Positions 1 through 64,000 of a stretch of 64,000 nt of DNA are shown piece after piece. The notes below the pieces were generated by a model. That model was given only the letters and a program-made list of their open reading frames with translations. It was not told the origin of the DNA and ran no database searches. Source of the DNA: Patescibacteria group bacterium. GTDB lineage: Bacteria > Patescibacteriota > Patescibacteriia > Buchananbacterales > SURF-54. Every line of letters starts with the position of its first letter. The first letter of the stretch is position 1. The stretch covers positions 32,985-96,984 of the forward strand of contig JAHIRB010000040.1 of NCBI GenBank assembly GCA_018818885.1. Direction: 5' to 3'. The translations under genes and the position numbers were made by a program.

Positions 1-2
1 TT

Positions 3-1097
3 ATGGATATGGATAAAAAATTAGGATTGATTATTGGTTCTGCATATAACGGTTCAATAAAAAAAATGATTTTTACAGTAATGAATTATTTATTACCAGA
101 AGAAGGCGTGTTGCCATTACATTGTGGAGCCAACGAAGACAAGGAGGGAAATACAGCACTTTTTTTAGGGCTTTCTGGGACAGGCAAAACATCTCTAGCA
201 ACAGACCCACAAAGAAAACTAATTGGCGATGATGAACATCTATGGTCTAACGACGGAATAGCAAATTTTGAAAGTGGTTGTTATGCAAAACTAATTAATT
301 TAAATCCTAAAAAAGAACCAGAAATATATAACGCTGTCTTTACTAACAGGCATCATTTGGAAGACGGTACAATCATTGAAAACGCCATGATATACCCTGA
401 TGGTTATATTGATTTAGATGATGAACGACTGTCTCAAAATTCACGCGTTTCATATCCAATTGAGTATTTGAGTAATGTTAACTTGCAAGGAAGTGGTGGT
501 CATCCTAAAACAATTATTTTTTTAACAGCTGATGCAAACGGAGTACTACCACCAGTTGCAAAATTGAATACAGAACAAGCAATGTTTTGGTTTTTAATGG
601 GATATACCTCAAAACTTGCAGGTACAGAAACTGGTGTGCTGGAACCAACAACAGTGTTCAGCAGATTTTTTGGCGAACCTTTTATGCCACGTAATCCAAA
701 TGATTATGCTGAACTATTAGGTGAAAAAATAAAAAAGTATAATACCAAAGTATTTTTAGTAAACACTGGCTGGACAGGTGGTCCGTATGGAGTAGGTGAA
801 AGAATAGATATTAGTATTAGTAGAAAAATAATTGATAACATCTTAAGCAATAAACTCGACAACGTAGAATATCAAAAAGATGAAAGATTTAAATTTTTTG
901 TTCCGAAGACTTGTGACGGGATTGATTCAAAAATATTAAATCCAGAAGAAAGTAATACTGATAAAAATGTTTTTAACAAAAGAGCAGATACATTGGCGCA
1001 AGAGTTTTACGGACATTTTACAAAAATGTATGTTGACAAAGTAGACAGAGACATTAAAGACCAGTGCCCCAAAAAGCTAAACGAAGTTTTTGTATAG
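3..1097 (+). CDS. pckA: phosphoenolpyruvate carboxykinase (ATP), C-terminal 364 aa; 5' end cut by window edge
   Basis: GLSGTGKTS P-loop and IGDDEH motif typical of ATP-dependent PEPCK; ORF open at position 3. Confidence 0.85.
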   Translation: MDMDKKLGLIIGSAYNGSIKKMIFTVMNYLLPEEGVLPLHCGANEDKEGNTALFLGLSGTGKTSLATDPQRKLIGDDEHLWSNDGIANFESGCYAKLINLNPKKEPEIYNAVFTNRHHLEDGTIIENAMIYPDGYIDLDDERLSQNSRVSYPIEYLSNVNLQGSGGHPKTIIFLTADANGVLPPVAKLNTEQAMFWFLMGYTSKLAGTETGVLEPTTVFSRFFGEPFMPRNPNDYAELLGEKIKKYNTKVFLVNTGWTGGPYGVGERIDISISRKIIDNILSNKLDNVEYQKDERFKFFVPKTCDGIDSKILNPEESNTDKNVFNKRADTLAQEFYGHFTKMYVDKVDRDIKDQCPKKLNEVFV

Positions 1098-1114
1098 ATT
1101 TATAAAAAGTAAAG

Positions 1115-1160
1115 CAAGACCCGGCGGTCTTGCTTTGTCACGTGACGTTGTTATAGGTTT
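1115..1160. terminator. bidirectional intrinsic terminator
   Basis: perfect 10-bp stem aagcaagacc/ggtcttgctt with 4-nt loop; T-run on the minus-strand side (tactttttataaa); followed by 10-bp palindrome gtcacgtgac. Confidence 0.5.
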
Positions 1161-1163
1161 CTC

Positions 1164-1331
1164 TTAAAATGAGAAAGGATTCAGTTTTAAGGCTTTATAG
1201 ATTAGAAAACTCGCCACCATAAAGCAAAAGATCATAATCCAAAGATTTACTGCCACAATACCACTTATTGCTGATATTACACCAAGAATTGCAAAAGCAA
1301 AAGCCTTCTTCCTAGCTTCCTGTTTTTTCAT
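1164..1331 (-). CDS. 55-aa single-TM small protein (basic N-terminus MKKQEARKK then hydrophobic helix); type-I-toxin-like
   Basis: ATG at 1331 preceded by AAAGGAGGA 9 nt upstream; terminator downstream; below ORF-track length cutoff. Confidence 0.4.
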   Translation of the reverse strand: MKKQEARKKAFAFAILGVISAISGIVAVNLWIMIFCFMVASFLIYKALKLNPFSF

Positions 1332-1396
1332 TTTGCCTATCCTCCTTTAGATATAGAATACTTCAAAAATAGCATAATATCAAGTATAATATAGGC

Positions 1397-2848
1397 ATGA
1401 AACAATCAGTTGCTAAAAACACTACCTGGTTTACTTCTTCGATGGTATTGCAAAAAATGCTATCGTTTATTTATTTTTGGTATATCTCAAACAACCTATT
1501 TCCTGATGCATTGGGTAAGTATGTTTTTGCGCTCTCTTTTACGACTTTATTTTCAATTTTTATTGATCTTGGTCTTTCACAGGTTTTAATTCGTGAATCT
1601 GCGAAACAAGTTTACAAAAGTAATGATTATTTAAAAAATGTTTTAGGTATCAAAATACCATTAGCAGTTATTACCATCATCGCTGCAGTTATTGGTATTA
1701 ATCTACTCGGCAGACCAGAGCTTGTTAAAATTCTTGTTTATCTAGCTTGTAGTATTATGGTGCTGGATTCTTTTACTTTGAGTTTTTATTCGATATTTAG
1801 ATCAGCACAGAATTTAAAGTTTGAAAGTATTGGTACAATTTTATTTCAAATTATCAATTTTGCGTTAGGTATTACAGCTTTGAAAATGACAGGAGATGTA
1901 CGATATCTTATGCTGGCTTTAGTAACTGCTAGTTTATTTAATTTTATTTTTTCTTTAAGTTTATTGAAATTGAAATTGAAATTTAGCTTAATGCCAGTGT
2001 GGCAAAAAGATGTCTTAAAACATTTTTTAAAAATTGTACCCGCGTTTGCTTTAGCTGGAATCTTTATTAAAATTTACAATACTTCAGATTCAGTTCTGTT
2101 AGGCATATTGGCTGATGATGAAGCAGTGGGATATTTTGCAGTGCCTGCTAAAGTAGTCTTTGCACTGCAGATGATAATACCGGGTTCTTTTGCCGCAGTT
2201 ATTTATCCAGCTTACAGTTATTTCTATATTAATTCAAAAGAAAAACTCAAACTTTTGTACGAAAAAGCATTTTTTTATTTAATGTTTTTAAGTATACCAA
2301 TGGCTTTAGGATTATTTATCTTAGCGCCAGAAATCATATATAAAATTTGGCCAGAATATTCTCCTGCCATACAGACTTTTAAAATCATGGCCTTAGCTAT
2401 GCCTTTTATCTTTTTAGCTTTTGCAACAGGAACTCTACTTAACGCATGTGATAGACAAAAAAATAACACCATCAACCGCGGAATCATTACCTTGATAAGT
2501 GTTGTGATAAATTTATTATTAATACCAGTTTATGCTCAGCTTGGTGCAGGAATTGCTTTTTTAATTACTAACGTAACTTTGTTGATATTAGATTTAATTT
2601 GGGTAGATAAAGTTCTAGTATATAGCAAAAAATATTTGTTGAATTCACTAATTAAAATACTAATCGCAGTAGCAGTAATGTCAGCTGTAATATATTATGT
2701 TGATATGAATTTGATGATCACTGTATCTGTAGGAGCAGTAGTATATATAGTGATTTCATATCTATTAAAAACTTTTACTTTAGATGATATTAAATTGTTT
2801 ACTAATACAATGAGAAGAAATGAAGAAAACACTACTAGTAACAATTGA
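1397..2848 (+). CDS. polysaccharide biosynthesis flippase (Wzx-like, MOP superfamily), ~12 TM
   Basis: 483-aa polytopic membrane protein with typical Wzx hydrophobic profile; embedded in glycosyltransferase cluster. Confidence 0.65.
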   Translation: MKQSVAKNTTWFTSSMVLQKMLSFIYFWYISNNLFPDALGKYVFALSFTTLFSIFIDLGLSQVLIRESAKQVYKSNDYLKNVLGIKIPLAVITIIAAVIGINLLGRPELVKILVYLACSIMVLDSFTLSFYSIFRSAQNLKFESIGTILFQIINFALGITALKMTGDVRYLMLALVTASLFNFIFSLSLLKLKLKFSLMPVWQKDVLKHFLKIVPAFALAGIFIKIYNTSDSVLLGILADDEAVGYFAVPAKVVFALQMIIPGSFAAVIYPAYSYFYINSKEKLKLLYEKAFFYLMFLSIPMALGLFILAPEIIYKIWPEYSPAIQTFKIMALAMPFIFLAFATGTLLNACDRQKNNTINRGIITLISVVINLLLIPVYAQLGAGIAFLITNVTLLILDLIWVDKVLVYSKKYLLNSLIKILIAVAVMSAVIYYVDMNLMITVSVGAVVYIVISYLLKTFTLDDIKLFTNTMRRNEENTTSNN

Positions 2849-3830
2849 TTTTCCACCTAACCTGGGTGGAGTAGCAAAGTATTATCAAGATATATGTAAT
2901 GATTTTGAATCAGATAAGATTGTTGTTTTGACTATGAACCAAGAAAAATCAGAAGAGTTTGACAGCCAGCAAAAGTATAAAATATATCGAAATGATTTAT
3001 TGTATAAATTTATTTGGCCAAAGTGGTTAAAAATGATATTCGCAATAAAAAAAATAGTTAAACAAGAAAATATTGGACACATTCATGTAGGACAAATTTT
3101 ACCAGTTGGAGAAGCAGTATTGTTTACCAGATTGCCCTTTACTGTATTTGCTCACGGCATGGATATCACAATTCCGCAAAATAACTTACGTAAAAAAATT
3201 GTATTAAAAAAGATAATTAAAAAGTCAGAAAAACTAATTGCTAATAGTAATTTTACCAAGCAAGAATTAGTCAAACTAGGTGCTGGTGAGAATAAAGTTG
3301 AAATCATACATCCCAAACCAAACAAAAAGTTACTAGACTTGGTTGATCAGAATGTAATAAATCAAATTAAAGAAAAGTATAACTTACAGAATAAAAAAGT
3401 ACTATTAAGCGTTGGTAGGTTAGTGAAAAGAAAGGGTTTTGACGATGTTATCATAGCTTTACCAGAAGTATTGAAAGAAATACCAAATTTAGTCTATATC
3501 ATTATAGGTGATGGACCAGAGAGGAAAAATCTTAATAAAGTAATTCAAGATTCAAAATTAAGTAATGTTGTGATAACTGGTAGCGTCAACGAAAAAGAAC
3601 TAGCTGCATACTATAGTTTATGTGATGCATTTATTATGACATCAAAACAATTAGATAATGGTGATGTCGAAGGGTTTGGAATAGTATATTTAGAAGCAGA
3701 TATGTTTAATAAGCCAGTGATTGGACGAGATAGCGGTGGTATAAAAGATGCAATTGATTTATGCCAAGACAAGATATTAATTAGGTCAGAGAGGGAGATT
3801 GCTTTAAGTATAATTAGATATTTAAAATAA
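2820..3830 (+). CDS. glycosyltransferase family 1 (GT4-like)
   Basis: C-terminal EGFGIVYLEA / GxxGG motifs of GT-B retaining glycosyltransferases. Confidence 0.75.
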   Translation: MKKTLLVTIDFPPNLGGVAKYYQDICNDFESDKIVVLTMNQEKSEEFDSQQKYKIYRNDLLYKFIWPKWLKMIFAIKKIVKQENIGHIHVGQILPVGEAVLFTRLPFTVFAHGMDITIPQNNLRKKIVLKKIIKKSEKLIANSNFTKQELVKLGAGENKVEIIHPKPNKKLLDLVDQNVINQIKEKYNLQNKKVLLSVGRLVKRKGFDDVIIALPEVLKEIPNLVYIIIGDGPERKNLNKVIQDSKLSNVVITGSVNEKELAAYYSLCDAFIMTSKQLDNGDVEGFGIVYLEADMFNKPVIGRDSGGIKDAIDLCQDKILIRSEREIALSIIRYLK

Positions 3831-3837
3831 AAAGAAA

Positions 3838-3860
3838 GGGTACCCCGAAAGGTACCCTGT
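3838..3860. terminator. hairpin gggtacc-ccgaaa-ggtaccc, T-run on minus side
   Basis: 7-bp perfect stem; minus strand followed by tttctttttatttt. Confidence 0.45.
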
Positions 3861-3886
3861 AATCAGGCAAAAAATATTGCATATTT

Positions 3887-4024
3887 CTACTTTTTTTCTA
3901 ATAAGCACTTGCCGGTTATTTTATCGTATCGGAACAATGTTATGTTGTGATTTAGTATTGCTACGTTTGTCATGCGAGCAGTTGCATTAAACGGCACACC
4001 ATAAGTTTTGTAGTAGTAATACAT
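3887..4024 (-). CDS. 45-aa small ORF (MYYYYKTYGVPFN...)
   Basis: ATG preceded by TGGAGGG (4-nt spacer); own AT-rich upstream region and the 3838-3860 terminator downstream; not in ORF track. Confidence 0.3.
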   Translation of the reverse strand: MYYYYKTYGVPFNATARMTNVAILNHNITLFRYDKITGKCLLEKK

Positions 4025-4079
4025 GTTTCCCTCCATTCGGTTGCCTGATTAAAAAGTATTTTATAATAATATAAGTAAT

Positions 4080-4790
4080 ATGTCAACAATAGGTATAATA
4101 ATACCAACATATAATAACGAGAAAGAAATTTATCAATGCTTAGATAGCATATTTAAGCAAAGTTTTAATGATTTTGAAATTGTAATAGTTAATGATGGAT
4201 CAACTGACAATACTTTAAATGAAATTAACAAGTATATAGATCAATTAGATCAAGTTGATAAAAAAAAGATAAAAGTTATATCACAAGAAAACAAAGGTTC
4301 TAATCCCGCACGAAATAGGGGAGCAAAAGAAATAAAAAATGTAAAATATGTATTATTTTGCGACGCCGATGTCACTTTAAATAAAAACTTTCTACAATTG
4401 ACTAATGAGGTCTTAGAAAATCATCCAGAAAAATCATATTGTTATACCTCATTTGTCTATGGCTATAAAAAATTCAAATTGTACCCATTTAATGCTGAAA
4501 AACTTAAAAAGATGCCTTACATCAATACTCAATCATTAATTCGATTTGATCACTTTCCAGGATTTGATGAAAATATTAAGCGCCTACAAGACTGGGATTT
4601 GTTTTTAACAATGTTGGAACAGAGTCATGAAGGAATTTGGCTTGACAAAGTTATGTTTAAAATTAGTACTAAATCAGGAAAAATCAGTGGAAAATGGCTA
4701 CCATCTTTCATGTACAAATTACCCTTTTTAAAAACCGTAAAAGAATATAATAAAGCAGTAGAAATTATTAAACAAAAACATCACCTATAA
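4080..4790 (+). CDS. glycosyltransferase family 2
   Basis: N-terminal IIIPTYNNE...DGSTD GT-A signature. Confidence 0.8.
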   Translation: MSTIGIIIPTYNNEKEIYQCLDSIFKQSFNDFEIVIVNDGSTDNTLNEINKYIDQLDQVDKKKIKVISQENKGSNPARNRGAKEIKNVKYVLFCDADVTLNKNFLQLTNEVLENHPEKSYCYTSFVYGYKKFKLYPFNAEKLKKMPYINTQSLIRFDHFPGFDENIKRLQDWDLFLTMLEQSHEGIWLDKVMFKISTKSGKISGKWLPSFMYKLPFLKTVKEYNKAVEIIKQKHHL

Positions 4791-5652: not shown

Positions 5653-7153
5653 TAAGATTTTTAAATTCACATTTATCTTGTTTGTAATACTAGAAGCATT
5701 GTCGCTTTTAGTATTTTTTAATCCTTTATTTAATGCTTTGATATTTTTAGCTATTGTTTTAGTCACCCTAGTTTTATCTATAAAGAATCTTCAATACGGT
5801 TTACTGATAATTTTGACTGAGCTTTTCATCGGAGGTAAAGGATATCTTTTTGCTATAAATTTTGGCCAAACATCAATTTCCATCCGCATGGGTTTGTTTC
5901 TGGCAATATTAGGAGTGTGGTTATATAAAGAATATATAGACAGACATAATCTAATATCAAAATATTCATCACTAATAAAGAAAAATGGCTTACTGCTTAC
6001 TGCTTACTGCTTACTGCTTATCTCCATAGCCTATGGAATAATCAATGGATTACTAAAAAATAATTTCAACCTCGCTTACTTCGACTTCAACTCTTGGTTC
6101 TTCTTTGCCTTATTTCTGATTTTTATACAGTCGATCAATCTTGACTTACTTAAAAAGGTCACCTCCATTCTTTTAGCTTCTGTTACTTGGGTTAGCTTAA
6201 AAACTATTATTGTTTTGTATTTGTTCTCACATCGTTTTGTAATAATTGGTGATGGATTTTACAAGTGGTTACGCGACACTGGAGTAGGGGAAATAACACA
6301 TATTCAAGATGATATATTCAGAGTATTTTTTCAATCACATATCTTTGTCCTAATTGGTTTTTTTGTTTTGTTAACGTTATTTGTTTATTCTATTAAAGAC
6401 AAACAGATTTTTGCAAAAAGCAAATGGTCAAATCAATTATTCATTTTGACACTTTTTACAATACTAGTTAGCACTACATTATTGATCAGTCAGTCTAGGA
6501 GTTTCTGGGTAGCAGGTTTAGTAACATTTTTTGGTGCATTGATATTTTACTTATTCAAACTCAAGCTTAAAAGAAATATCATTATTGGCTTACTAGTATT
6601 TATATTGATTTTAGGTATTTTTGATTCTGTAGCTATTTGGTTAATAACACAAAGCTCATCAATAGAACTTCTCATGGCTAGATCCACAGAAGTGACTACC
6701 GAAGCTGCTAGTAGCTCACGTATTAATCAACTACAGCCAATTTTTGCAGAAATAAAAAAAGCCCCGCTATTGGGACATGGCTTTGGTAAAACTGTTACTT
6801 ATAAATCTGCAGATCCGCGCATAGTTTCGCAAAATCCTGACGGCATGTATACCACTTATGCCTTTGAGTGGGGGTATTTAGATACTTGGCTAGAAATTGG
6901 TCTGATTGGACTGCTGATTTACTTAATCTTGATTGGTTTACTTATTCTTTATGGACTTAAACTCTACAAAACATCTGGACATAAGACATTAATACTTGGA
7001 CTTTTGCTTGGATTAACATCTTTAGTCATTGCCAACGTATTTACCCCATACCTTAACCATCCACTCGGAATAGGTTATGTGTTGCTGCTGACAGCGCTGT
7101 TCCAAAAAGAAAAGCGACCCGACGACATAATAATGTCACCGGGTCAAAACTAG
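5642..7153 (+). CDS. O-antigen ligase/polymerase-like (Wzy_C family) membrane protein
   Basis: multi-TM protein with large loop, located after flippase and GTs; start taken at MEINKIF (5642). Confidence 0.55.
   Translation: MEINKIFKFTFILFVILEALSLLVFFNPLFNALIFLAIVLVTLVLSIKNLQYGLLIILTELFIGGKGYLFAINFGQTSISIRMGLFLAILGVWLYKEYIDRHNLISKYSSLIKKNGLLLTAYCLLLISIAYGIINGLLKNNFNLAYFDFNSWFFFALFLIFIQSINLDLLKKVTSILLASVTWVSLKTIIVLYLFSHRFVIIGDGFYKWLRDTGVGEITHIQDDIFRVFFQSHIFVLIGFFVLLTLFVYSIKDKQIFAKSKWSNQLFILTLFTILVSTTLLISQSRSFWVAGLVTFFGALIFYLFKLKLKRNIIIGLLVFILILGIFDSVAIWLITQSSSIELLMARSTEVTTEAASSSRINQLQPIFAEIKKAPLLGHGFGKTVTYKSADPRIVSQNPDGMYTTYAFEWGYLDTWLEIGLIGLLIYLILIGLLILYGLKLYKTSGHKTLILGLLLGLTSLVIANVFTPYLNHPLGIGYVLLLTALFQKEKRPDDIIMSPGQN
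5989..6020 (+). repeat. heptanucleotide tandem repeat (cttactg) x4.4 inside the Wzy-like coding region
   Basis: cttactgcttactgcttactgcttactgctta read directly; unit length not divisible by 3. Confidence 0.8.
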
Positions 7154-7175
7154 GAGTTACAGCATGTATTCAATA

Positions 7176-7334
7176 TTACATAATTTGACCGCAATAGAAA
7201 CAAGCGCACGTCTCGGGATCATACATGTGAGTTTTCCTCCAAAGAAAAACTGAATTTTTCTCACAATAATTTTTAGCTGCAAACAACAGTAAGTGTCCTA
7301 ATGCCCAAAAGAAAATCGCACCTAGACCAATCAT
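7176..7334 (-). CDS. 52-aa small membrane protein with C-terminal Cys cluster (CEKN...ETCACFYCGQIM)
   Basis: ATG at 7334 with AAAGGAGGC 8 nt upstream, immediately downstream of fmt stop (7349); not in ORF track. Confidence 0.4.
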   Translation of the reverse strand: MIGLGAIFFWALGHLLLFAAKNYCEKNSVFLWRKTHMYDPETCACFYCGQIM

Positions 7335-7348
7335 TTAAATCGCCTCCT

Positions 7349-8293
7349 TTATCCAAGTTGTGAACCCACGAAATCTGAATAGCCATTTACAAAATCATTA
7401 GCTGACATTACTTTTTTCCCTTCCATTTGAAGGGATTTTATGTGAATTGCATGCTCTTTGCATTTTATCAAAACTTCGTTATTTTGTCCTAAAAATACCT
7501 CTCCATTCTTTAATTTTGCCCCTATTTCACCCTCAAAAACGCTCAAATCAATGATTTTAAGACGTTTTTTGTCATAATGAGTAAATATACCAGGCCAAGA
7601 TTGAAAGGCTCTAAATTGACGTTCTATCTCAACAGCTTTTTTGCTCCAATCAATCTTGCCAGCATCGCGTCCAAGCTCCTTTGTCATGGTCATTTTCGAT
7701 TCATCTTGTTCTATGATTTGAGCAGTGCCATCAATGTAATGAGGTAATATTTCGATTAATATTTCTGCTCCAACTTCTGCTAATTTATCATGCAAAGTTA
7801 TGTTAGTATCTTCATTTGATATTAAATATTCTTTTTGTGCTACAATAGGTCCTGCGTCCAGTTTTTGGACAAGTCTGATAATTGTTACACCTGTAATTTT
7901 ATCACCATTAAGTATTGCATGTTGAATGGGAGAAGCACCACGATATTTTGGTAAAAGTGACGGGTGTACATTCAAAATTCCTAGTGGAAGCATATCAATA
8001 ATGTTATTTGGAATAAGTTCTGCGTAAGCTGCCAAAATTCCTAAATCAGCATTTATATTATTTAGTTGATCTAAAAAATCAGCCTCACTTACTTTTTGTG
8101 GTTGAAGAATTTTTAGATTATGCTTTTTTGCAATAACTTTAACTGGTGTTTCAGTCAATTCTTGTTTTCTGCCTGACGGCCGGTCTGGTTGAGTGACTAC
8201 TGCTTTAATCTTAAAATGACTTAATAGTTTTTCTAAAATTAATGCTGACATTTCGGATGTACCAAAATATATAATTATTTTAGCAGTAGTCAT
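7349..8293 (-). CDS. fmt: methionyl-tRNA formyltransferase
   Basis: HPSLLPKYRGASPIQ formyltransferase motif, 314 aa, adjacent to def. Confidence 0.9.
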   Translation of the reverse strand: MTTAKIIIYFGTSEMSALILEKLLSHFKIKAVVTQPDRPSGRKQELTETPVKVIAKKHNLKILQPQKVSEADFLDQLNNINADLGILAAYAELIPNNIIDMLPLGILNVHPSLLPKYRGASPIQHAILNGDKITGVTIIRLVQKLDAGPIVAQKEYLISNEDTNITLHDKLAEVGAEILIEILPHYIDGTAQIIEQDESKMTMTKELGRDAGKIDWSKKAVEIERQFRAFQSWPGIFTHYDKKRLKIIDLSVFEGEIGAKLKNGEVFLGQNNEVLIKCKEHAIHIKSLQMEGKKVMSANDFVNGYSDFVGSQLG

Positions 8294-9209: not shown

Positions 9210-9318
9210 AGCATTTGTATTATATCAAAAATACCCAAAGATTTAGGCAAACGAACATACTGAATTATTTCTACATATTTTGGCATACAAAGTTATTTTA
9301 ACATTTATACAAAAAGAG

Positions 9319-9353
9319 AAGAAGACCGTGCATAAAAAGCTTCCGGTCTTCTT
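9319..9353 (-). terminator. intrinsic terminator ending the Memo-like/small-ORF operon
   Basis: 10-bp perfect stem aagaagaccg/cggtcttctt, followed on minus strand by ctcttttt. Confidence 0.55.
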
Positions 9354-9378
9354 AATTTATCGAGTGTCTATACACTCA

Positions 9379-9582
9379 CTAAGCAGTTCTGAATATTACA
9401 GGATCTTCTTGCGCATTTTCATTAATTGCTTGCCTGTGTTCTTTTTCTATTTGTCGACATTGTTCGACCCACTGATCTGCAGACTCCCTGAGAGCTTTGA
9501 TGATTTTTGGGCTGAAATGTGTATGCGGTGGCATACCAACATAGTCATGACTTTCTGTGCATATTTCACACATATCACTCAA
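9379..9582 (-). CDS. 67-aa small protein P3 (MSDMCEICTESHDYVGMPPHTHF...)
   Basis: GC-richer than surroundings; TTG/ATG start after gagaaaggaa; last gene before terminator; preferred over overlapping plus-strand ORF 9280..9627 which is low-complexity. Confidence 0.4.
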   Translation of the reverse strand: MSDMCEICTESHDYVGMPPHTHFSPKIIKALRESADQWVEQCRQIEKEHRQAINENAQEDPVIFRTA

Positions 9583-9726
9583 ATTCCTTTCTCGTGGTTA
9601 ACAAATTTGTTGCTTTTGGTACACTAGTACCTGTGTAGAAGACAAATGATAGTACGGAGAAATTGCCACCAAGACAATTCAGAAAGAAATTCTTCAATGG
9701 TTTGTTCATAAGGATAATGACACATA

Positions 9727-9873: not shown

Positions 9874-9946
9874 TTGTCAATTCCCCCCCAATTTTTTACC
9901 GCATTCCCAATTGATTACGTATTGCATCATCAAAATATTCAGTAGT

Positions 9947-52445: not shown

Positions 52446-52448
52446 ATT

Positions 52449-55614: not shown

Positions 55615-55715
55615 ACCCCGTAGTAGAAATTTGATTTATTAGAATATATCATATATATTATTACCCCATACAAATTTGACTTTATACCTATCAAATTTTC
55701 ACTACGGGGCATATT

Positions 55716-57302
55716 TTAATATAAAGCTTTACTAGACATTGCTTTATCTTTTATAATGCCCATTAATTTTAAAACTGTTGGCGCAACATCTCCCAACACA
55801 CCATTTTTTAATTTCTGAGGAATCTTTTCTTTGGTAATGATAATAAATGGTACTGGGTTAAAAGTGTGTTCAGTATACACTTCGTTTGTCTTTAAATCAA
55901 TCATTTTTTCGGCGTTACCATGGTCTGCTGTGATGATTAGATTGCCTCCCAGTTCTTTAACAGCGTTATAAACTTTGCCTACACATTTATCGACTGCTTC
56001 AACTGCCCCGACAGCTGCCTTGATATCTCCAGTATGGCCAATCATGTCTGGATTGGCAAAATTAACTGTAATAAAATTATAATTTTTTAATACTGAAAGA
56101 AGTTTAGTAGTAATTTCATTAACTGACATTTCTGGTTTTTTTGCATAATTATCTACTTTTGGTGAATCAATCTTTATTCTATCTTCAGCAGCGACAGTGT
56201 CTGCATATCCACCATTAAAAAAATACGTCACATGGGCAAATTTTTCTGTTTCTGCAATATAGAGTTGTTTTTGACCAACTAGTGTCATTGGTAGTGTTCC
56301 GACTAGATCTGGGTTGGGGTATGCAGTTATGATATTTCCTAGGTCAGGCCCAAAATCAGACATTGCAATAAATAATACATTTTTTAAAACTTTTTTTCTT
56401 TGAAAACTTCCTGGATTCATTTTATTAAAATGTTCTTGAACAAACGGTTTAGCAAGTTGACGAGCTCTATCAGATCTTAAATTAAAAAATATAACTGCAT
56501 CTTTATCTTTAATTTTTGCAATTGGTTTTCCACCACGCACTATAACATATGGGGGAATAAATTCGTCTGTTTCTTCCCTATTATAACTTTCCGTAATTGC
56601 GGCCTGAGGACTCTGAATTTTTAACCCCTTATTAAGCACCATTGTATTGTATGCTTTCTCGGTATTAAGCCAAGATTTTTTTCGATCCATGGCATAATAT
56701 CTACCCATAATTGTGGCAATCCACTCCCCTGTTCTTTTACCATCACCCTCATGATTTTTTAAATTTCTCATGATGGATTCTATCATTTTTAGTGCTCCAT
56801 GGGGTGGTGAATCGCGTCCATCAGTAAATAAATGTAAATACACGCTGTCAATTTTTCTCAAACGTGCCCACGTTAAAAGGGCTAACAAATGATCTGGGTC
56901 GCTATGCGCACTGCTACCGTTGGAAAGCATTCCCATTAAATGCAAATTTGATTTATTTTTTTTAACATGCTTATATGTTGCTTCAAATGCAGGATTTTTA
57001 AAAAATTGTCCTGTATTAATTGCTTTAGAAATATAAACTGCTTCTTGATCAACAACTCTACCAGCACCTAAGTTGTTGTGACCGGCTTCTGAATTACCAT
57101 ATTGAGTTAGTGGAAGTCCACAATACTTCCCAGAGGCCTGCAGTTTAGAATGAGGATATTTTTTCCATAAACGATCCATCACCGGCGTTTTAGCCAATGA
57201 TATTGCATTACCTTTATTTGCTGGAGCAAGACCCCAACCGTCGAGGATTAATAAGACAGTTGGTTTGATTTTCTTAGCCCTTTTAGGCTTACTTGTAGGC
57301 AT
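55716..57302 (-). CDS. gpmI: 2,3-bisphosphoglycerate-independent phosphoglycerate mutase, second tandem paralog
   Basis: LLILDGWG, same architecture, diverged from upstream copy. Confidence 0.85.
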   Translation of the reverse strand: MPTSKPKRAKKIKPTVLLILDGWGLAPANKGNAISLAKTPVMDRLWKKYPHSKLQASGKYCGLPLTQYGNSEAGHNNLGAGRVVDQEAVYISKAINTGQFFKNPAFEATYKHVKKNKSNLHLMGMLSNGSSAHSDPDHLLALLTWARLRKIDSVYLHLFTDGRDSPPHGALKMIESIMRNLKNHEGDGKRTGEWIATIMGRYYAMDRKKSWLNTEKAYNTMVLNKGLKIQSPQAAITESYNREETDEFIPPYVIVRGGKPIAKIKDKDAVIFFNLRSDRARQLAKPFVQEHFNKMNPGSFQRKKVLKNVLFIAMSDFGPDLGNIITAYPNPDLVGTLPMTLVGQKQLYIAETEKFAHVTYFFNGGYADTVAAEDRIKIDSPKVDNYAKKPEMSVNEITTKLLSVLKNYNFITVNFANPDMIGHTGDIKAAVGAVEAVDKCVGKVYNAVKELGGNLIITADHGNAEKMIDLKTNEVYTEHTFNPVPFIIITKEKIPQKLKNGVLGDVAPTVLKLMGIIKDKAMSSKALY

Positions 57303-57436
57303 TTATTGATTAATAATGTTTAGAAAATGACAAAATCCAATTTCATGTAGCATGCAATATTTAAGACTTGTTATATGTTACATGTTTCATGTTACATGAT
57401 ATACATTCTATCTTTGGATTTTGGATTTAATATGAT

Positions 57437-58693
57437 TTACCTTACTTCGTCTTCAATTTCCATTAAACGATTATATTTAGATACTCGTTCTCCTCGCGAT
57501 ATTCCAACTTTCACAAATTCCGAATTAGTAGCAACTGCTAAATCAATCATGGAAGTATCATTAGTTTCTCCCCCACCGCGATGTGATACGATTGACCAAA
57601 AACCTACCTTGTGCGCCATTTCAATTGTCTGAACTGTTTCTGACAAACTACCAATTTGATTCAGTTTGATCAAAATTGCATTGATTGCTTTTAAGTCGAT
57701 GGCTTTTTTCAAACGTTCTGGGTTAGTTACTGTTAAATCATCTCCGACAATTCTAACTTTCTTGCCTAATTCTTTCGTAATTACTGGCCACCAATCCCAA
57801 TCATCTTCTGCTAAAGGATCTTCCAAAGTTATTAATGGATATTTGTTTACCCAAGTTTTAAAATAATCAATCATTTGACGCGAACTCAATTTCTTCTTAT
57901 CCTTTTTCATGTTGTACTTTCCATTTTCAAAAATTTCAGAAACTGCTGGGTCTGCAGACAACATTACATCTTTTCCTGCTTTGTAGCCTGCTTTTTTAAT
58001 AGCTTGCATAATCAATAGCCAAGGTGATTCGTTATTTTTTAAACCTGCTGGCGCGTATGCCCCTTCGTTTCCTACGTTTGCATTTAGATTTTTCTGATGA
58101 AGAACCTTTTTTAGATTGAGATAAACTTCTGCTCCGATTCTTACGCTTTCTTTAATATTTTTACCACCAACTGGTGTTATCATATATTCTTGTAAATCCG
58201 TTGAATTTACTGCATGTTTACCACCTTCTATAACAACTATCATGGGTTTGGGTAATTTATAATTCTTATATTTTAAACGATACGTTTGACGAATATATTT
58301 ATAGAACGGGACTTTTTTTGATTGAGCTGAAGCTTTAGCCACTGCTAAAGAAACACCTAAAATTGCATTGCCACCTAGTTTTGACTTATTTGGTGTGCCA
58401 TCAAGATAAATCATAATCTGATCAATCTTTTTCTGTAAAAAAGGATTTTGTCCTATTAGCTTGGGCGCAATCTTTTTATTGATATTGTTTACAGCTTTAA
58501 GCATGCCTTTTCCACCATAACGTTTTTTATCACCATCAAATAATACAGTAGCTTCGTGAATCCCTGCAGAAGCACCAAAAGGCACAGAAGCAACACCGAT
58601 TGAAGCATCTGACAAAACTACTTTAACTTCTAACGAAGGCGTAGCGCCTGAACTCAAAATCTCACGTCCTTTTATAGACTTAATTTTAATCAT
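57437..58693 (-). CDS. eno: enolase
   Basis: SIKGREILSSGATPSLEV..VPFGASAGIHEA; start taken at MIKIKSIKG. Confidence 0.9.
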   Translation of the reverse strand: MIKIKSIKGREILSSGATPSLEVKVVLSDASIGVASVPFGASAGIHEATVLFDGDKKRYGGKGMLKAVNNINKKIAPKLIGQNPFLQKKIDQIMIYLDGTPNKSKLGGNAILGVSLAVAKASAQSKKVPFYKYIRQTYRLKYKNYKLPKPMIVVIEGGKHAVNSTDLQEYMITPVGGKNIKESVRIGAEVYLNLKKVLHQKNLNANVGNEGAYAPAGLKNNESPWLLIMQAIKKAGYKAGKDVMLSADPAVSEIFENGKYNMKKDKKKLSSRQMIDYFKTWVNKYPLITLEDPLAEDDWDWWPVITKELGKKVRIVGDDLTVTNPERLKKAIDLKAINAILIKLNQIGSLSETVQTIEMAHKVGFWSIVSHRGGGETNDTSMIDLAVATNSEFVKVGISRGERVSKYNRLMEIEDEVR

Positions 58694-58729
58694 AAATAAG
58701 TAATTATTAATTAACTCCAAATAAATATT

Positions 58730-58812
58730 ACGAATTACGTATCAATACGAATATACAAATACGAGTTAATATCAGTTGATACGTATATTCGTATGAATTT
58801 GTAATTAGTAAC
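58730..58812. promoter_or_regulatory. AT-rich upstream element E2 with 11-bp inverted repeat tacgaatatac-N25-gtatattcgta; homolog of E1
   Basis: aligned by eye with 10951-11040. Confidence 0.45.
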
Positions 58813-59607
58813 TTACAGGATTTCGTAACCAACAGTTGCTGTAATTATTATCTCCATACTTCCAGCTTCAATTTCTGGTACACCGCTACCACCACCGATG
58901 CCTGCATCCATTGCTTCCATGGCATAATACTTTGGTGCTTGGCCAGAAGTACTTTCAGAAAAACTTACAACTTTACCAAGTTTTACTCCAGCTACCTTAG
59001 CTAAGCTTTCTGCTTTTTCTTTAGCATTTTTTATCGCTTCTTCTCTAGCTTGTTGACGTAAGGCTTCTGGGTCGTCTACATCAAATGAAATTCCTGAAAC
59101 CTGATTTGCACCACCTTGCCCGGCAGCAGTCAATATATCACCAATTTTTTCTAAATCTCTAATTTTAATTGTCACACTCTGCTCAACTGAATAACCACGT
59201 AAAATACTAATTCCATCTCGCCAATCATAACGTGGATAAATATTATAGCTTGTTGTTTGAATATCTTTATCATCTACACCCATGCCCTTAATTTCTTTAA
59301 TCAATGCGTTCATTTTTGTAGTATTTTCTGTTTGGGCGTTAGCAACGTTTAATTTTTCTGTTCTAATACCTACACTAGTTTTAGCAATATCAGGTATAGC
59401 TACTACTTTACCTTCTCCACTTATACTTATAATGTGTGGAAATTCTTCTGATTTACCAATGTAATTAAATTCTTTCCACTCATTTCTAATTAAAGTTCCC
59501 AGATAAAGAACTAAGAACAAAACTAGCAAAGTTTTTAAGGCCATGCCTGTTTTTGAATGAAAATGTTTTTTAATTTCTTCCACTTGTGATGAGTTATTCG
59601 ACATCAT
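58813..59607 (-). CDS. SIMPL-domain (DUF541) secreted protein
   Basis: N-terminal TM/signal, SIMPL-family sequence pattern. Confidence 0.7.
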   Translation of the reverse strand: MMSNNSSQVEEIKKHFHSKTGMALKTLLVLFLVLYLGTLIRNEWKEFNYIGKSEEFPHIISISGEGKVVAIPDIAKTSVGIRTEKLNVANAQTENTTKMNALIKEIKGMGVDDKDIQTTSYNIYPRYDWRDGISILRGYSVEQSVTIKIRDLEKIGDILTAAGQGGANQVSGISFDVDDPEALRQQAREEAIKNAKEKAESLAKVAGVKLGKVVSFSESTSGQAPKYYAMEAMDAGIGGGSGVPEIEAGSMEIIITATVGYEIL

Positions 59608-59624
59608 AAAATTAATATTAATTA

Positions 59625-60842
59625 TTATTTTTTGATTAAAGGCTTTAATGCAACCAAAGTTTTGTCTTCTAAAAACTTTAACATTGCTCCCCCGCCTGTT
59701 GAAATATAAATATTAGATCTTTCAAAATGCATAAAACTTTTTAACGATTTTATTGCTTCTGCTGTTTCTCCGCCTCCTATTATTATCTTTGCACTAGAAT
59801 GTACTACTGCATGTATCACACCAACAGTTCCAGAAGCAAATTTTGGGTTTTCGAACATTCCCATCGGTCCATTCCAGATAATTGTTCTAGATTCTCTAAT
59901 TATGCAATCATATAATTTTAAAGTATCTGGTCCGATATCTAAAGCATATTCATTTTTTGCAATATTTCCTGCTGCTTTAACTTTTGCTTTAGCATTTTTA
60001 GTCATTTTATCAGATACAATTACGTCAACAGGTATATGTAAATGCGTGTCCGTTAATTTTAGTTTTCGCAGTGCTTTAACCATGTCTTCTTCTACAATAG
60101 AGCGACCAACTGAGATACCCTTGGCTTTTAATACAGTATTGGCTAAAGCGCCTCCGATCATAACATCATCGGCAATCTTTAAAAGATTTTTTATTACTCC
60201 TAGCTTGGTTGAAATTTTTACTCCACCGATCAATGCAACAAAAGGTCGTTTTGGGTGATTGAAAACATGCGAGAGTTCTTTAATTTCTTTTTCCAACAGA
60301 AACCCGGCATAACTTGGAAGAAATTTTGGTACACCAACCATTGTTGCGTAAGCTCTGTGGCTTTTGGCAAAGGCTTCGTTAATATATATATCAGCAAAAC
60401 TAGCAAGTCTTTTTGAAAATTTTACATCGTTATTTTTTTCTTCTGAATGATATTCTGCATTTTCCATCATTACAATCTCTCCTGGCTTTAAAGAATCAAT
60501 TATTTTTTTAGTTTCATCACTTATACAATCTGGTGTTATCAAAACTTTCTTTCCTAGCAGCTGCTCTAATTTTTTAGCCACTGGTTTAATTGAAAGCTCT
60601 GGCACTCGCACTCCGTTTGGACGGCCTAGAGAAGAAACCAATATTAATATAGCTTTCTTGTTCAGCAAATATTTAAGTGTAGGCAAAGATTCAGTAATCC
60701 TCATATCTTCTGCTACTTTAGGATTTTTGCCGCCAGTTAATGGTACGTTAAAATCAACGCGAAGTAACACCTTCTTGCCGGTAAGATTCTTGATTTGTTT
60801 AATTGATTTTAGCTTCATATCCGGTAGTGAAAATTCAAACAA
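59625..60842 (-). CDS. pgk: phosphoglycerate kinase
   Basis: RVDFNVPL N-domain motif, full length. Confidence 0.9.
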   Translation of the reverse strand: MFEFSLPDMKLKSIKQIKNLTGKKVLLRVDFNVPLTGGKNPKVAEDMRITESLPTLKYLLNKKAILILVSSLGRPNGVRVPELSIKPVAKKLEQLLGKKVLITPDCISDETKKIIDSLKPGEIVMMENAEYHSEEKNNDVKFSKRLASFADIYINEAFAKSHRAYATMVGVPKFLPSYAGFLLEKEIKELSHVFNHPKRPFVALIGGVKISTKLGVIKNLLKIADDVMIGGALANTVLKAKGISVGRSIVEEDMVKALRKLKLTDTHLHIPVDVIVSDKMTKNAKAKVKAAGNIAKNEYALDIGPDTLKLYDCIIRESRTIIWNGPMGMFENPKFASGTVGVIHAVVHSSAKIIIGGGETAEAIKSLKSFMHFERSNIYISTGGGAMLKFLEDKTLVALKPLIKK

Positions 60843-60955
60843 TGTGTTTGTTTAATAATTTATGTTTATATGAAAATATTGCTTGCATATTAACTATACT
60901 TTGTTCAAAATCAATTTGAATTTCTACTACCGGATCATATTTGAATTATATCACA

Positions 60956-61210
60956 TTATTCCCCTTCGATTTCAACCAACTTCCAACTTTCTCCTTTTGT
61001 TTTTTTTATTTTGATTTTAGCACCTTTTGCTGGTGTATTTTTTGCTAGTAGTTTTAAATTGAATTTAAGATTATCTGAATTTATTTCATCACCATGTTCA
61101 ATAATTGATCCTAGCTCAATAACAATTTTGTTGACTTTCATCAACTTGTTTTCGTTAGCATTCTCTAACACTATTTTAAGAATATTGTCAGCGGCATGTA
61201 AATCGTGCAT
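60956..61210 (-). CDS. HypA-like hydrogenase maturation factor N-domain lacking the zinc-ribbon
   Basis: MHDLHAADNILKIV.. start resembles HypA (MHEhSh); no CxxC pairs; adjacent to hydrogenase large subunit. Confidence 0.4.
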   Translation of the reverse strand: MHDLHAADNILKIVLENANENKLMKVNKIVIELGSIIEHGDEINSDNLKFNLKLLAKNTPAKGAKIKIKKTKGESWKLVEIEGE

Positions 61211-61290
61211 ATGTGTTTATGCAGCATGAAACATATAATATGTAGCAAGTAGAATAATTTTGCATATGTTACATGCTATATGATTCGTGA

Positions 61291-62580
61291 CTAATGCGTT
61301 GCACAGCTAATACACGGATCATAAGCTCTAATTAAAGTTTTAATCTTTAACTCTCTTTCTTTAGGTGACATTTCAGCAGTTTGGGGTAATAATTTTCTTA
61401 GATCTTCTTCGATATTATTTAAAAACAAAACTGTTGGTGTAATTATTTGCGTGGAAACAATTCTGCCGTCACGATCAATTTCGTAGTGATGATAAAGTAT
61501 ACCGCGCGGTGCTTCCATCAATGCTGATCCTTTTGTAGTTTTATTTTTTGGGTTAGCAAATGCTATAAGCTTGAGCTTTTTTGCTTGACTAACTTCATCT
61601 TTGAGTCCGACCTTAAGAATATCACGAATTAAATGTCCAATTTCTTCTGTACAATGCAACACTTCAATTGCCTGCGCCAATACATTAAAAAACGTATTGT
61701 GAATTGGAAACTCTAAAGTCAAGTCTGCTACTGCTTTTTTGGCCTGGGGTGCAAGTTGTTCGTGATTGTTGTTTAAACGAGCTAACGCCCCTACCATGAA
61801 CGGCTTATCTTTATATTTAGCACGCTTGGCAGCTAAGTTTGGCAGCTGGTATTCATATATGGCGTTTGTGATATTTTTTGTAGAAATTTTTTCACCTGAA
61901 CTAGTATTTAGATTTCCTGAATATATTGCGTATTCATTTTTATTATGTAAAGAAATAAATTCTGTTTTTCTAACAAACGATGGATACTTGATATTGGCTG
62001 TAAATAAAACCAATTCTATAGCATCAAACATTGCTTTTTCCCAATTGAAATAGATTTCTTCAAGTTGTTTTTCTTTTGGCAATATTTTAAACCCGCCAAC
62101 TTCGCAAGCAATTGGATGGACTACTCTAGCGCCAAGTATTTTTATCACATTAGTCGCCCACTCTCTTAAATTTAAAGCAGACTTTCCTGCTTTGGGAAAT
62201 TGCTTTAAAAATTCAAGATCATTTTCAATACCAAAAAAATCAGGGAGTGACAAAAAGTATAGATGTAAAGCATGACTATGCAAAATTTGTGCTAGTTCCA
62301 TTATTTTTCGCAACTTGGTTGTTTGTACAGATACTTTTATACCTAAAGCATCCTCAATGGCATTGATAGCAGTTAAAGCATGAACAACTGGGCAAATTCC
62401 ACAGATTCTTGCAGTTATGACAGGCACTTGCGTGTAATTTCTGCCAACTACTATTCCTTCCATTAATCTTATGCCTTCAGTTGTGATAAGTTTTGCCTGA
62501 CCGACATTGCCTTTCATCAAAGCACCCTCAAAATCCATATGCCCTTCCATCTTAGCGAGGTGATTAATCTTGATCTTCAT
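61291..62580 (-). CDS. [NiFe]-hydrogenase large subunit
   Basis: N-terminal RICGICPVVH and C-terminal DPCISCATH Ni-Fe ligating motifs; ends at His (no C-terminal extension). Confidence 0.85.
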   Translation of the reverse strand: MKIKINHLAKMEGHMDFEGALMKGNVGQAKLITTEGIRLMEGIVVGRNYTQVPVITARICGICPVVHALTAINAIEDALGIKVSVQTTKLRKIMELAQILHSHALHLYFLSLPDFFGIENDLEFLKQFPKAGKSALNLREWATNVIKILGARVVHPIACEVGGFKILPKEKQLEEIYFNWEKAMFDAIELVLFTANIKYPSFVRKTEFISLHNKNEYAIYSGNLNTSSGEKISTKNITNAIYEYQLPNLAAKRAKYKDKPFMVGALARLNNNHEQLAPQAKKAVADLTLEFPIHNTFFNVLAQAIEVLHCTEEIGHLIRDILKVGLKDEVSQAKKLKLIAFANPKNKTTKGSALMEAPRGILYHHYEIDRDGRIVSTQIITPTVLFLNNIEEDLRKLLPQTAEMSPKERELKIKTLIRAYDPCISCATH

Positions 62581-62958: not shown

Positions 62959-62979
62959 TTATTAATGATTAATTATGAC

Positions 62980-63008
62980 TTGACAATTTTAATATATTTT
63001 ATTAAGGT
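62980..63008 (+). promoter_or_regulatory. promoter-like TTGACA-17-TAAGGT
   Basis: perfect -35; weak -10. Confidence 0.3.
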
Positions 63009-63030
63009 AATTGCTGAAAGGAGGAGAACG

Positions 63031-63372
63031 ATGAAAATTCTATTGGTTGGTAATTCGATGTTTCTAAGAGTATTAGCCGATGCACTCAGTGAAAAAAAAC
63101 ATGTGATCATAGGAGTCAGTACAATATCTGGAGCGGAATCTGCCACTTCTACAGACCCAGATATAGGTCTGGCAATTCTCGTCCCTGATATACCCGACGT
63201 ATCACGCCATCATTGCCTTGAATTGGCAAAAAGAATCAAGGAAAATCTGCCTGACGCAAAGGTTGCCTTAACAGATAACATCAACCCGGGAAAAATATTC
63301 CACTTTCTGATTCCACCTAACACCGGCATTGATGCTGCACTCAAAGCCATCGAGGTAAACGTCACCAAATAG
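63031..63372 (+). CDS. 113-aa protein in GC-richer cassette antisense within hydrogenase operon; degenerate receiver-like N-terminus (MKILLVGNS)
   Basis: AAAGGAGGA SD 5 nt before ATG; terminator follows; opposite strand to flanking hydrogenase genes. Confidence 0.5.
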   Translation: MKILLVGNSMFLRVLADALSEKKHVIIGVSTISGAESATSTDPDIGLAILVPDIPDVSRHHCLELAKRIKENLPDAKVALTDNINPGKIFHFLIPPNTGIDAALKAIEVNVTK

Positions 63373-63397
63373 AATGTGAATAATCAAAGGGCTAGGG

Positions 63398-63436
63398 GCG
63401 GACGAAGTAAATTCGTTCGCTCATTTCTTTTTCTTT
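63398..63436 (+). terminator. intrinsic terminator
   Basis: gcggacgaa-gtaaa-ttcgttcgc then tcatttctttttcttt. Confidence 0.55.
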
Positions 63437-63444
63437 ACTCTGAG

Positions 63445-64000
63445 CTACGTCGAAGGGTTTGTTTTCTTTCGTTTTTCTTTCTGTTCGATCAATTCCTCTT
63501 TCAACGCTTCTTGCTGCCAATTATCTTTAATCCCAAAAACTTCTAATACTTCAAATATTTTTGGTAATGGGTGATTCCTCCAAAGCATAGTTACAAACTT
63601 AGTAACATCTGGTTCTTCGATTAAACCTCTACAACCCCAGCAAGCTTGTTTGCCTTTTAAGCATACTGCATCACAACCTGCTAAAGTAATTGGCCCCACG
63701 CAAATATCACCTTTTTGTAGTAGACACTCATAGCCATTAATCTGGCATTCCCAACAAACTGGATTTTGTAGTAATTTGACAGGCAATCCCGAAAGCAGCT
63801 GATAAGTAATATTTAAAAACTCTTCTGCAGTAATTGGGCATCCAGGAATTGTGTGGTCAACTTTAACTAAATTGGATATTGGCTCAATTTCAGAATTTTC
63901 TATACCTTTAGGATTTTTATAAACCATCTTTAATAACTTATCTTTTCCTGCAAAACTTTTCATTTGATGTATTCCACCGGTATCTGCACAATTACCTAAT
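63445..64000 (-). CDS. [NiFe]-hydrogenase small subunit (C-terminal part; gene continues past window end)
   Basis: multiple Fe-S Cys ligands (GCPIT, CWECQ, CVGPITLAGCDAVC, CWGC); reading frame open to position 64000. Confidence 0.75.
   Translation of the reverse strand, partial: LGNCADTGGIHQMKSFAGKDKLLKMVYKNPKGIENSEIEPISNLVKVDHTIPGCPITAEEFLNITYQLLSGLPVKLLQNPVCWECQINGYECLLQKGDICVGPITLAGCDAVCLKGKQACWGCRGLIEEPDVTKFVTMLWRNHPLPKIFEVLEVFGIKDNWQQEALKEELIEQKEKRKKTNPST

Follow-up and report, generated by a model that had tools for sequence, protein, structure and literature searches.

The strength of the Shine-Dalgarno (SD) sequences is bimodal in a 64-kb stretch of DNA from a Patescibacteria group bacterium, a member of the candidate phyla radiation (CPR): conserved core genes lack an SD, whereas a set of small intergenic open reading frames (ORFs) is preceded by very strong ones. 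This stretch (contig JAHIRB010000040.1, positions 32,985 to 96,984; hereafter the window) has an overall GC of 33.3%. The divide had been noticed in a first-pass annotation, and the observation is real. We think that it probably reflects two translation-initiation regimes which coexist in this organism, an SD-independent one for the core and an SD-led one for flexible small genes. We scored each start by the pairing free energy (dG) of the 18 nt upstream of it against ACCUCCUUU and took dG <= -9.8 kcal/mol as the threshold for a strong SD. None of the 55 large ORFs reaches this value (median +0.4 kcal/mol), so that gltX, frr, mreB, eno and the other housekeeping genes are indeed without an SD, as had been claimed. 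The best SD of a large ORF is the AGGAG of fmt (dG -8.6), and the count remains 0/55 when the start may be any ATG, GTG or TTG among the first 40 codons.

Twelve intergenic ORFs of 45-141 amino acids (aa), by comparison, score between -9.8 and -12.9 kcal/mol: 1164-1331(-), 3887-4024(-), 7176-7334(-), 9727-9873(-), 9947-10123(-), 11139-11339(+), 11354-11779(+), 14396-14557(-), 20002-20310(+), 26196-26426(-), 29911-30153(+) and 63031-63372(+). They make up about 16% of the ORFs in the window. The difference between SD-led and large ORFs is significant (Mann-Whitney, p = 3.5e-8). Taking the 2098 ATGs in the window as background, the share with a dG of -9.8 or below is only 0.81%. All twelve ORFs start with ATG, with a spacing of 5-9 nt between the GGAGG core and the start codon in every case, and their SD motifs span a G-only run (GGGGGGG, at 9727-9873), GGAGG and sequences up to AGGAGGTGA. 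Of the small ORFs listed earlier with a strong SD, 26046-26183 has only GGGAG (-8.0) and is AT-rich, with a GC of 0.30.

The same divide is found in relatives, in eight loci altogether. The relatives were gathered in three ways: GTDB was scanned with GltX, metagenomes were scanned with the 457-aa neighbour, and the contigs of Fmt homologues were looked up. The resulting set comprises L002, L049-L057 and three loci of 20 kb each, with an Fmt identity of about 50%. Conserved genes are without an SD in every relative sampled. Their order (wzx-GT4-GT2-(GT2)-wzy-fmt-def-...-memo-45x aa-rSAM-...-tagA-gltX-M23) is shared by the window with L002 and L054-L056, and the gaps between them are filled by different small ORFs. 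The gap ORFs of the relatives code for products of 39-100 aa that usually contain one or two transmembrane (TM) helices; in L049-L057 their SDs score -9 to -12.4, reaching TAAGGAGGTGAT, and their GC content at third codon positions (GC3) is raised. Two small genes that are conserved in the clade, a 45-aa ORF preceding def and one for a 'PPAYPWQ...WKYFFK' protein of 85-97 aa, are also without an SD, so the divide separates core from flexible genes rather than large from small ones. A check of presence and absence in the genomes at about 50% identity (L002 and L054-L056), which the first-pass annotation had proposed, found a homologue for 0/8 SD-led versus 18/28 SD-less ORFs of the part of the window that these relatives cover (Fisher p = 0.003); the units around the SD-led ORFs are therefore not part of the conserved syntenic core. 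L002, with 48% identity, was the single syntenic relative recovered by the GltX scan. This closest GTDB representative (CAYTUI010000013.1) is labelled 'uncultured Gammaproteobacteria', a label that is probably wrong because L002 is SD-less and shares six-gene synteny with the window, whose Fmt matches Parcubacteria. The nearest named Fmt homologues come from Candidatus Buchananbacteria and Parcubacteria. Together with the NCBI name, they assign the window to a Parcubacteria (Buchananbacteria-like) chromosome. Exact protein look-ups put it on a contig of 106,482 bp with the locus tags KKA15_058xx-062xx, and the same genome is also present in SRR6514274. An origin from Bacteroidota, which the SD-less A-rich leaders might suggest, was rejected on this taxonomic evidence and on the sigma-70-type TTGACA/TATAAT promoters of core genes.

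L051 and L052, which are close to each other, allow gap ORFs to be compared directly. After fmt, where the window has the SD-led ORF 7176-7334, both carry a different SD-led TM ORF of 39 aa with a dN/dS of 0.14. Between def and fmt they share a 73-aa SD-led membrane ORF (L051 3043-3264, L052 1570-1791) which is 60% identical and saturated at synonymous sites (pS 0.83), while the flanking genes have pS of 0.22-0.40 and the flanking fmt and def are 89-96% identical. This pattern suggests a gene-specific allele replacement or recombination. In other relatives, ORFs of unusual composition were seen: L056 15841-16290 (GC 0.61, GC3 0.80) has a signal peptide, an Ala/Thr/Asn-rich sequence and the SD GGAGGA, and the non-homologous L055 15087-15602 has a GC of 0.59, in host genomes of 32-38% GC. 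Both are probably foreign or surface proteins.

One family allowed us to follow an SD across lineages. The ORF 11354-11779 (141 aa) has homologues of 150 aa in L049 and L057, at the convergent site between the Memo-like and the 45x-aa genes. A full HMMER search with the 141-aa protein retrieved these two true relatives together with a spurious tetratricopeptide (TPR) repeat protein. Protein identity within the family is 26-31%, as compared to 62-71% for the neighbouring genes, and the alignment across the three lineages shows conservation at the protein level with in-frame indels. The upstream regions are unalignable, and nevertheless every copy is preceded by a strong SD, namely GGGAGGG (window), AAAGGAGGA (L049) and GAAGGAGGA (L057); the L057 gene also has a clear promoter and terminator. 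Because the SD was kept in three orthologues despite such divergence, it appears to be selected rather than a relic of a donor. GC3 of the orthologues ranges from 0.50 (window) over 0.37 (L057) to 0.27 (L049) in hosts at 0.24-0.27, so the GC excess is not intrinsic to the class.

The starts of the core genes have features of their own. The sequence upstream of core ATGs consists of 50-60% A from -2 to -11, and 73% of core starts have U at -1, compared with only 1/12 SD-led starts (p = 7e-5). Strong (extended) -10 boxes end 6-9 nt before a core ATG in 13/35 matches versus 12.8% for control ATGs (p = 2e-4), often as TGnTATAAT before a gene that leads an operon; these are only 13/104 of all core starts. 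Such a placement points to leaderless or near-leaderless mRNAs as predicted from these boxes. The predicted -10 elements of the SD-led units lie 22-60 nt upstream of the start, so that their mRNAs are expected to have leaders, and in three units the predicted transcript start coincides with the SD.

Composition and transcription signals separate the two classes less sharply. Core genes have a GC3 of 0.24 +/- 0.03, and all twelve SD-led ORFs lie above the core mean (sign test 2e-4); in comparison with length-matched core fragments, six of them reach an empirical p < 0.05 and two more are at about 0.05. Three (11354-11779, 20002-20310 and 29911-30153) are 4-6 standard deviations out (z > 4). The small-ORF units had been noted as GC-richer, in the mid-40s %; an overall GC of 0.42-0.47 is found in only six of them. 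A canonical TTGACA -35 element had also been noted in several of the small-ORF units. This box is present in units at 4086, 11066, 29822 and 62980, but it also precedes core genes at 28089 and 39752, and the number of promoter-like sites (98, with 92 expected) shows no enrichment overall. The -35 element therefore does not separate the classes, and the promoter type is the same in both. Terminator-like hairpins are enriched twofold in the 1-20 kb region (18 found vs 8.9 +/- 2.9 in shuffles), and a G+C-rich hairpin with a T-run lies 3' of most units. This includes the two ORFs that had been thought to have an SD alone: we found hairpins at 7105-7145 for 7176-7334 and, shared with a convergent ORF, at 26185-26214 for 26196-26426, which in addition has a promoter-like site at 26476-26504.

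Overall, the SD-led ORFs and one borderline case can be arranged in eleven units, several of which are complete promoter-SD-ORF-terminator arrangements. Unit A (1102..1383, minus strand) has a promoter-like TTGATA-17-TATTCT (1383-1355) and the SD AAAGGAGGA (1348-1340; dG -11.7) in front of a 55-aa ORF (1331-1164; singleton cluster KKA15_05850) with one TM helix and a net charge of +6, followed by a bidirectional terminator (1136-1102). Between the GT4 and GT2 genes, Unit B (3824..4086, minus strand) combines the promoter TTGACA-17-TAAAAT (4086-4058), the SD GGAGGG (4035-4028; dG -9.8), a 45-aa ORF (4024-3887; GC3 0.42) and a terminator (3858-3824). The SD of Unit C (7105..7350, minus strand), AAAGGAGGC (7350-7342; dG -11.7), overlaps the stop codon of fmt and leads a 52-aa ORF with one TM helix (7334-7176) and a terminator (7145-7105). 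Unit D (9311..10134, minus strand) is a small-ORF operon directly after the Memo-like gene with a terminator at 9353-9311. It contains two SD-led ORFs (10123-9947, 58 aa, SD GGGAGGGG; 9873-9727, 48 aa, with the G7 SD) and two weaker ones (9709-9575, 44 aa by the longest start, with a weak or no SD; 9573-9379, 64 aa, with a weak SD), and no homologues of this unit were found in the relative loci. Unit E (11066..11848, plus strand) has the promoter TTGACA-17-TAAATT with TG (11066-11094) and a convergent terminator (11810-11848); its first ORF (11139-11339) encodes 66 aa with 4 Cys behind the SD AAGGAGGGA (11125-11133), and its second is the 141-aa ORF, an acidic protein with the SD at 11339-11345. 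Upstream of the AmmeMemoRadiSam radical-SAM gene, Unit F (14356..14610, minus strand) consists of the promoter TTGATT-17-TAAAAT (14610-14582), the SD AAAGGAGGGG (14573-14564; dG -12.4), an ORF for an acidic protein of 53 aa (14557-14396) and a terminator (14385-14356).

Tandem SDs, AGGAGGT (19964-19970) and AGGAGGTGA (19990-19998), are found in Unit G (19964..20361, plus strand), which lies downstream of higBA and encodes a basic protein of 102 aa (20002-20310; GC 0.47, GC3 0.55) followed by a hairpin (20339-20361); this ORF is uncalled as a gene in public collections. Unit H (25989..26183, plus strand) is the borderline case with the weak SD GGGAG (26035-26039) and a 45-aa ORF (26046-26183) of net charge +12. 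Directly 5' of this very basic ORF, downstream of lexA, 12 bp are perfectly repeated in inverted orientation around a 21-nt loop (25989-26033), a candidate operator or 5' stem-loop. The convergent Unit I (26185..26504, minus strand) shares its hairpin (26214-26185) with this ORF and has the promoter TTGACT-17-TAATAT (26504-26476), the SD GAGGAGGG (26441-26434; dG -12.1) and an acidic 76-aa ORF (26426-26196; singleton KKA15_06030). The strongest SD, AAGGAGGT (29899-29906; dG -12.9), belongs to Unit J (29822..30201, plus strand), in which the promoter TTGACA-17-TAAATT with TG (29822-29850) precedes an acidic 80-aa ORF (29911-30153; GC3 0.49) and a terminator (30164-30201). Finally, Unit K (62980..63433, plus strand) has a promoter-like TTGACA-17-TAAGGT (62980-63008), the SD AAAGGAGGA (63017-63025; dG -11.9), an ORF of 113 aa with alternating beta/alpha elements (63031-63372) and a terminator (63397-63433). 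The promoters of Units E and J (11064-11097 and 29820-29853) share TATTGACA-N12-TTTGATAAATTATG with an identical 14-nt extended -10 region; the two units may share a regulator, or the likeness may come from chance together with the promoter consensus.

The proteins encoded by the units lack known homologues in the collections searched. Pfam, PHROGs and PADLOC assigned no family to ten SD-led proteins, apart from one marginal PHROG match of no known function, and exact-cluster look-ups of the units gave singletons throughout. A word-index protein search with the 141-aa and 102-aa ORFs returned the query itself or nothing, and AlphaFold2 (AF2) models of the units are poor, with no significant fold match. 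Clustering of the small proteins, another check proposed at the outset, showed no shared family among the window units: in an all-versus-all BLASTP of 30 small ORFs, mostly SD-led, from the window and the relatives, the L051/L052 73-aa pair was the sole paralogy. TM segments are present in two of the twelve window ORFs (Units A and C) and in 11/14 SD-led ORFs listed from relatives; the remaining window units encode acidic or basic soluble proteins.

According to the two-regime reading, conserved syntenic genes would initiate independently of an SD. Operon-leading core genes would use leaderless or near-leaderless mRNAs made from an extended -10 (TGnTATAAT), and internal core genes would follow A-rich spacers with U at -1. 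The gaps between core genes would be occupied by small, clade-restricted and fast-evolving ORFs, at least twelve in the window, each unit being an autonomous module with a sigma-70-type promoter, a short leader, an SD of 5-10 nt placed 5-9 nt before ATG and a hairpin terminator. Because their predicted mRNAs are leadered and without the A-rich/U(-1) context of the core, the units would recruit the 30S subunit by pairing with a canonical 16S 3' tail, which would carry CCUCCUUU. The units would form a flexible pool whose members come, go and replace each other at fixed intergenic sites and are in some cases then inherited vertically; the SD would be their stable, selected hallmark, and an excess of GC or GC3 would mark only some copies, probably those that are younger or recently exchanged. 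The suggestion of the first-pass annotation that the small-ORF units follow a distinct expression regime is the best reading of these non-core, atypical and self-contained promoter-SD-ORF-terminator modules. Several points weigh against the two-regime reading. Rfam found no rRNA in the window or the relative loci, so that the anti-SD of this organism is a presumed one, and the CCTCCT motif was detected in only 48% of Parcubacteria 16S sequences (Tsurumaki et al., PMC9297842). The transcription start sites, the leaderless core mRNAs and the translated small ORFs are all predicted ones. Proven orthologues exist for one unit alone; the rest are ORFans, and short ORFans may be spurious. The relatives are covered over about 20 kb each. 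Moreover, the accessory genes at 17.9-22.1 kb, including HigBA, are SD-less, which means that accessory genes are not always SD-led.

Recent horizontal acquisition would explain the units as foreign cassettes from GC-richer, SD-using donors, with SD, promoter, terminator and GC as donor baggage. This is supported by a GC3 of up to 0.50-0.55 versus 0.24 in the core, the absence of the units at the syntenic sites of L002 and L054-L056, the relatives' ORFs at 0.59-0.61 GC, the presence of HigBA and of integrase-like and IS200-like genes in the window, and the L051/L052 73-aa ORF, whose synonymous saturation between unsaturated flanks suggests allele replacement. We nevertheless regard it as unlikely. 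The SD was kept in three diverged orthologues whose surroundings are unalignable, with the L049 copy at the GC level of its host, and half of the units are not GC-rich. No donor was found, and neither viral-contig scans with three units nor phage and plasmid BLAST returned a homologue. SD-led units are also not flanked by direct repeats; the sole repeat family (17920, 18530 and 19211) flanks SD-less accessory genes. Since the same dichotomy is present in every relative sampled, the units are not simply recent foreign cassettes; from this earlier proposal, the variability and the atypical GC of some units stand, while the conserved SD and the clade-wide pattern speak against it. The notion that the units are addiction modules, also raised at the outset, fared worse: no toxin-antitoxin or defence family was found among the ten SD-led proteins searched (Pfam, PADLOC, PHROG), and HigBA, the sole toxin-antitoxin pair, is SD-less. 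A further reading, in which the units are type I toxin-antitoxin-like loci or membrane-active peptides whose strong SD and structured mRNA are under antisense-RNA control, receives little credence from us. Units A and C and 11/14 of the relatives' SD-led ORFs do encode peptides of 39-100 aa with one or two TM helices, and the loci are intergenic, vary between strains and have their own promoter and terminator. However, 10/12 window units are not hydrophobic, and opposite-strand promoter matches at the units are weak only, without a convincing antisense promoter. The folding z-scores of -1.6 (Unit A), 0.0 (Unit F) and -3.2 (Unit J), of which only the last is unusually stable, give no general signal of structured mRNAs.

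It is similarly doubtful that the SD-led genes form the regulon of a specialised ribosome, with an anti-SD that is normally unavailable and SD-led mRNAs that are read conditionally or by a ribosome sub-population. An SD-less background with rare and very strong SDs (-11 to -13 kcal/mol) that are conserved in orthologues recalls rpsU in Bacteroidia, where translation is SD-less and a rare extended SD lets specialised ribosomes mediate the autoregulation of bS21 (McNutt et al. 2023, PMC9976891). The likeness extends to the A-rich upstream regions of nearly all genes, and the few exceptionally strong, conserved SDs would imply an anti-SD retained for a particular group of mRNAs. But in our case there are twelve SD-led genes in 64 kb, a share far above that in Flavobacterium; they are lineage-specific ORFans with their own promoters and terminators, and no match to a ribosomal protein was found among them. 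Moreover, the organism is a CPR bacterium, in which an occluded anti-SD would be hypothetical. Least probable of all, and in our opinion very hard to maintain, is that the units are no genes but structured non-coding RNAs or chance ORFs with incidental SD-like strings. In AT-rich genomes a GC-rich island is frequently an RNA, the majority of the ORFs are ORFans and the AF2 models are poor; yet Rfam gave no meaningful match over the window, at the gathering cut-off and even at E <= 1, canonical SD spacing with ATG is seen in 12/12 ORFs, and a 141-codon open frame at 43% GC is unlikely by chance. The protein-level conservation with in-frame indels across three lineages and the dN/dS of 0.14 for the 39-aa ORF also contradict it.

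Other known systems resemble the arrangement in part. Genomes of the GeneMarkS-2 'group C' type reportedly combine leaderless and SD-led gene classes. They share with our organism a -10 box fixed 6-9 nt before operon-leading starts beside a leadered SD class, whereas here the split follows core versus flexible genes and the SD class consists of small variable ORFs instead of a broad share of genes. Phage morons are self-sufficient modules of promoter, gene and terminator that stand out in composition and sit inserted among conserved genes. The units are likewise self-contained, often of different GC, located between syntenic neighbours and variable among relatives, but their neighbours are chromosomal housekeeping genes: the context is not that of a prophage, with one marginal PHROG match only, and no phage homologues were found. 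Type I toxin-antitoxin loci resemble the gap ORFs in that both are intergenic, have a strong SD and a terminator of their own, and encode peptides (39-75 aa) that contain one TM helix or two; but most window units are soluble, and neither a family match nor an antisense RNA was found for them. We found no description of this dichotomy in CPR bacteria, and no paper that mentions the accessions of the sample, within the limited library searched.

The large ORFs of the window encode ordinary functions of a chromosome. NCBIfam/Pfam identified gltX (16398-17819), frr (45699-46250), two mreB copies (43075-44130 and 49437-50447) and eno (57437-58720). Further large ORFs were annotated as pckA, wzx, glycosyltransferases, Wzy-like, fmt, def, tagA, an M23 peptidase, an AmmeMemoRadiSam Memo-like protein and radical-SAM enzyme, HigBA, lexA and dinB. 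A 32-kb contrast block of conserved SD-less core genes on the minus strand (30254..62580) contains zero SD-led units; it includes xerC-like (a Xer-like integrase), ftsQ, ddl, a mur ligase, an aminotransferase, serS, a class II aminoacyl-tRNA synthetase (Pfam tRNA-synt_2, D/K/N type), greA, PBP2, mreC, mreB, rseP, frr, holB, the second mreB, glycosyltransferases, two iPGM genes, eno, pgk and a NiFe-hydrogenase subunit. Within this block, the Mur-ligase-like ORF (34107-34847) has only 246 aa with N-terminal and middle domains, and a C-terminal domain does not fit before ddl. In the region 48406-49406, an IS200/Y1-transposase-like gene (184 aa) is preceded by a GC-rich non-coding stretch of 390 bp (150-nt maximum GC 0.53), and the second mreB copy, which follows it, has an unusually high GC of 0.40. 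A tRNA scan of the window found none.

The accessory block at 17.9-22.1 kb, between gltX and the M23 peptidase gene, is absent in relatives, and its SD-less genes have host-like GC3, including HigBA (19325-19927), the sole real addiction module of the window. It contains a three-copy direct repeat (TGAAAAATTCCTACACAAAACCTAAC..., up to ~60 nt; 17920-17945, 18530-18555 and 19211-19236; 0 expected by chance), with the copies just upstream of the isochorismatase gene, a 139-aa ORF and higB, respectively. Every copy is readable as a mini-ORF, MKNSYTKPNKKFW..., and the repeat resembles a reiterated insertion or the junction of a cassette. Also 3' of gltX lies a GTCATCCCGAGC...CGAGGGATCC element (17824-17850). 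A GTCATCCCGAGC-like string is found in reverse complement in L049 (~332-355) upstream of the 45x-aa gene; this string may be a dispersed repeat of the clade. Elsewhere, the ORFs 14615-14857 (80 aa) and 14895-15167 (90 aa) match the two halves of a LigT/2'-5' RNA ligase of 184-186 aa in L054/L055, and ligT therefore appears to be split or pseudogenised in the window.

CPR bacteria have not been cultured, and their lineage-specific genes for the most part lack annotation. If the rule holds that core genes are leaderless or SD-less and flexible small genes are SD-led, it would improve start-site and small-ORF calling and could flag candidate host-interaction or competition peptides in CPR genomes. 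A bolder proposal, which we put forward as a long shot, is that the anti-SD is kept for a private translation channel, with the SD as an address tag on fast-evolving, exchangeable small membrane, secreted or acidic proteins that would be translated apart from a leaderless core proteome, possibly under certain conditions or by a ribosome sub-population. Host interaction and competition would be candidate roles for such proteins, and the presence of an SD would then allow the flexible 'interaction' genes of CPR bacteria to be found straight from sequence. Our results also advise caution, as an SD together with atypical GC is no proof of recent horizontal transfer. Moreover, these bacteria offer a natural system for studying why the anti-SD persists in lineages that barely use it.

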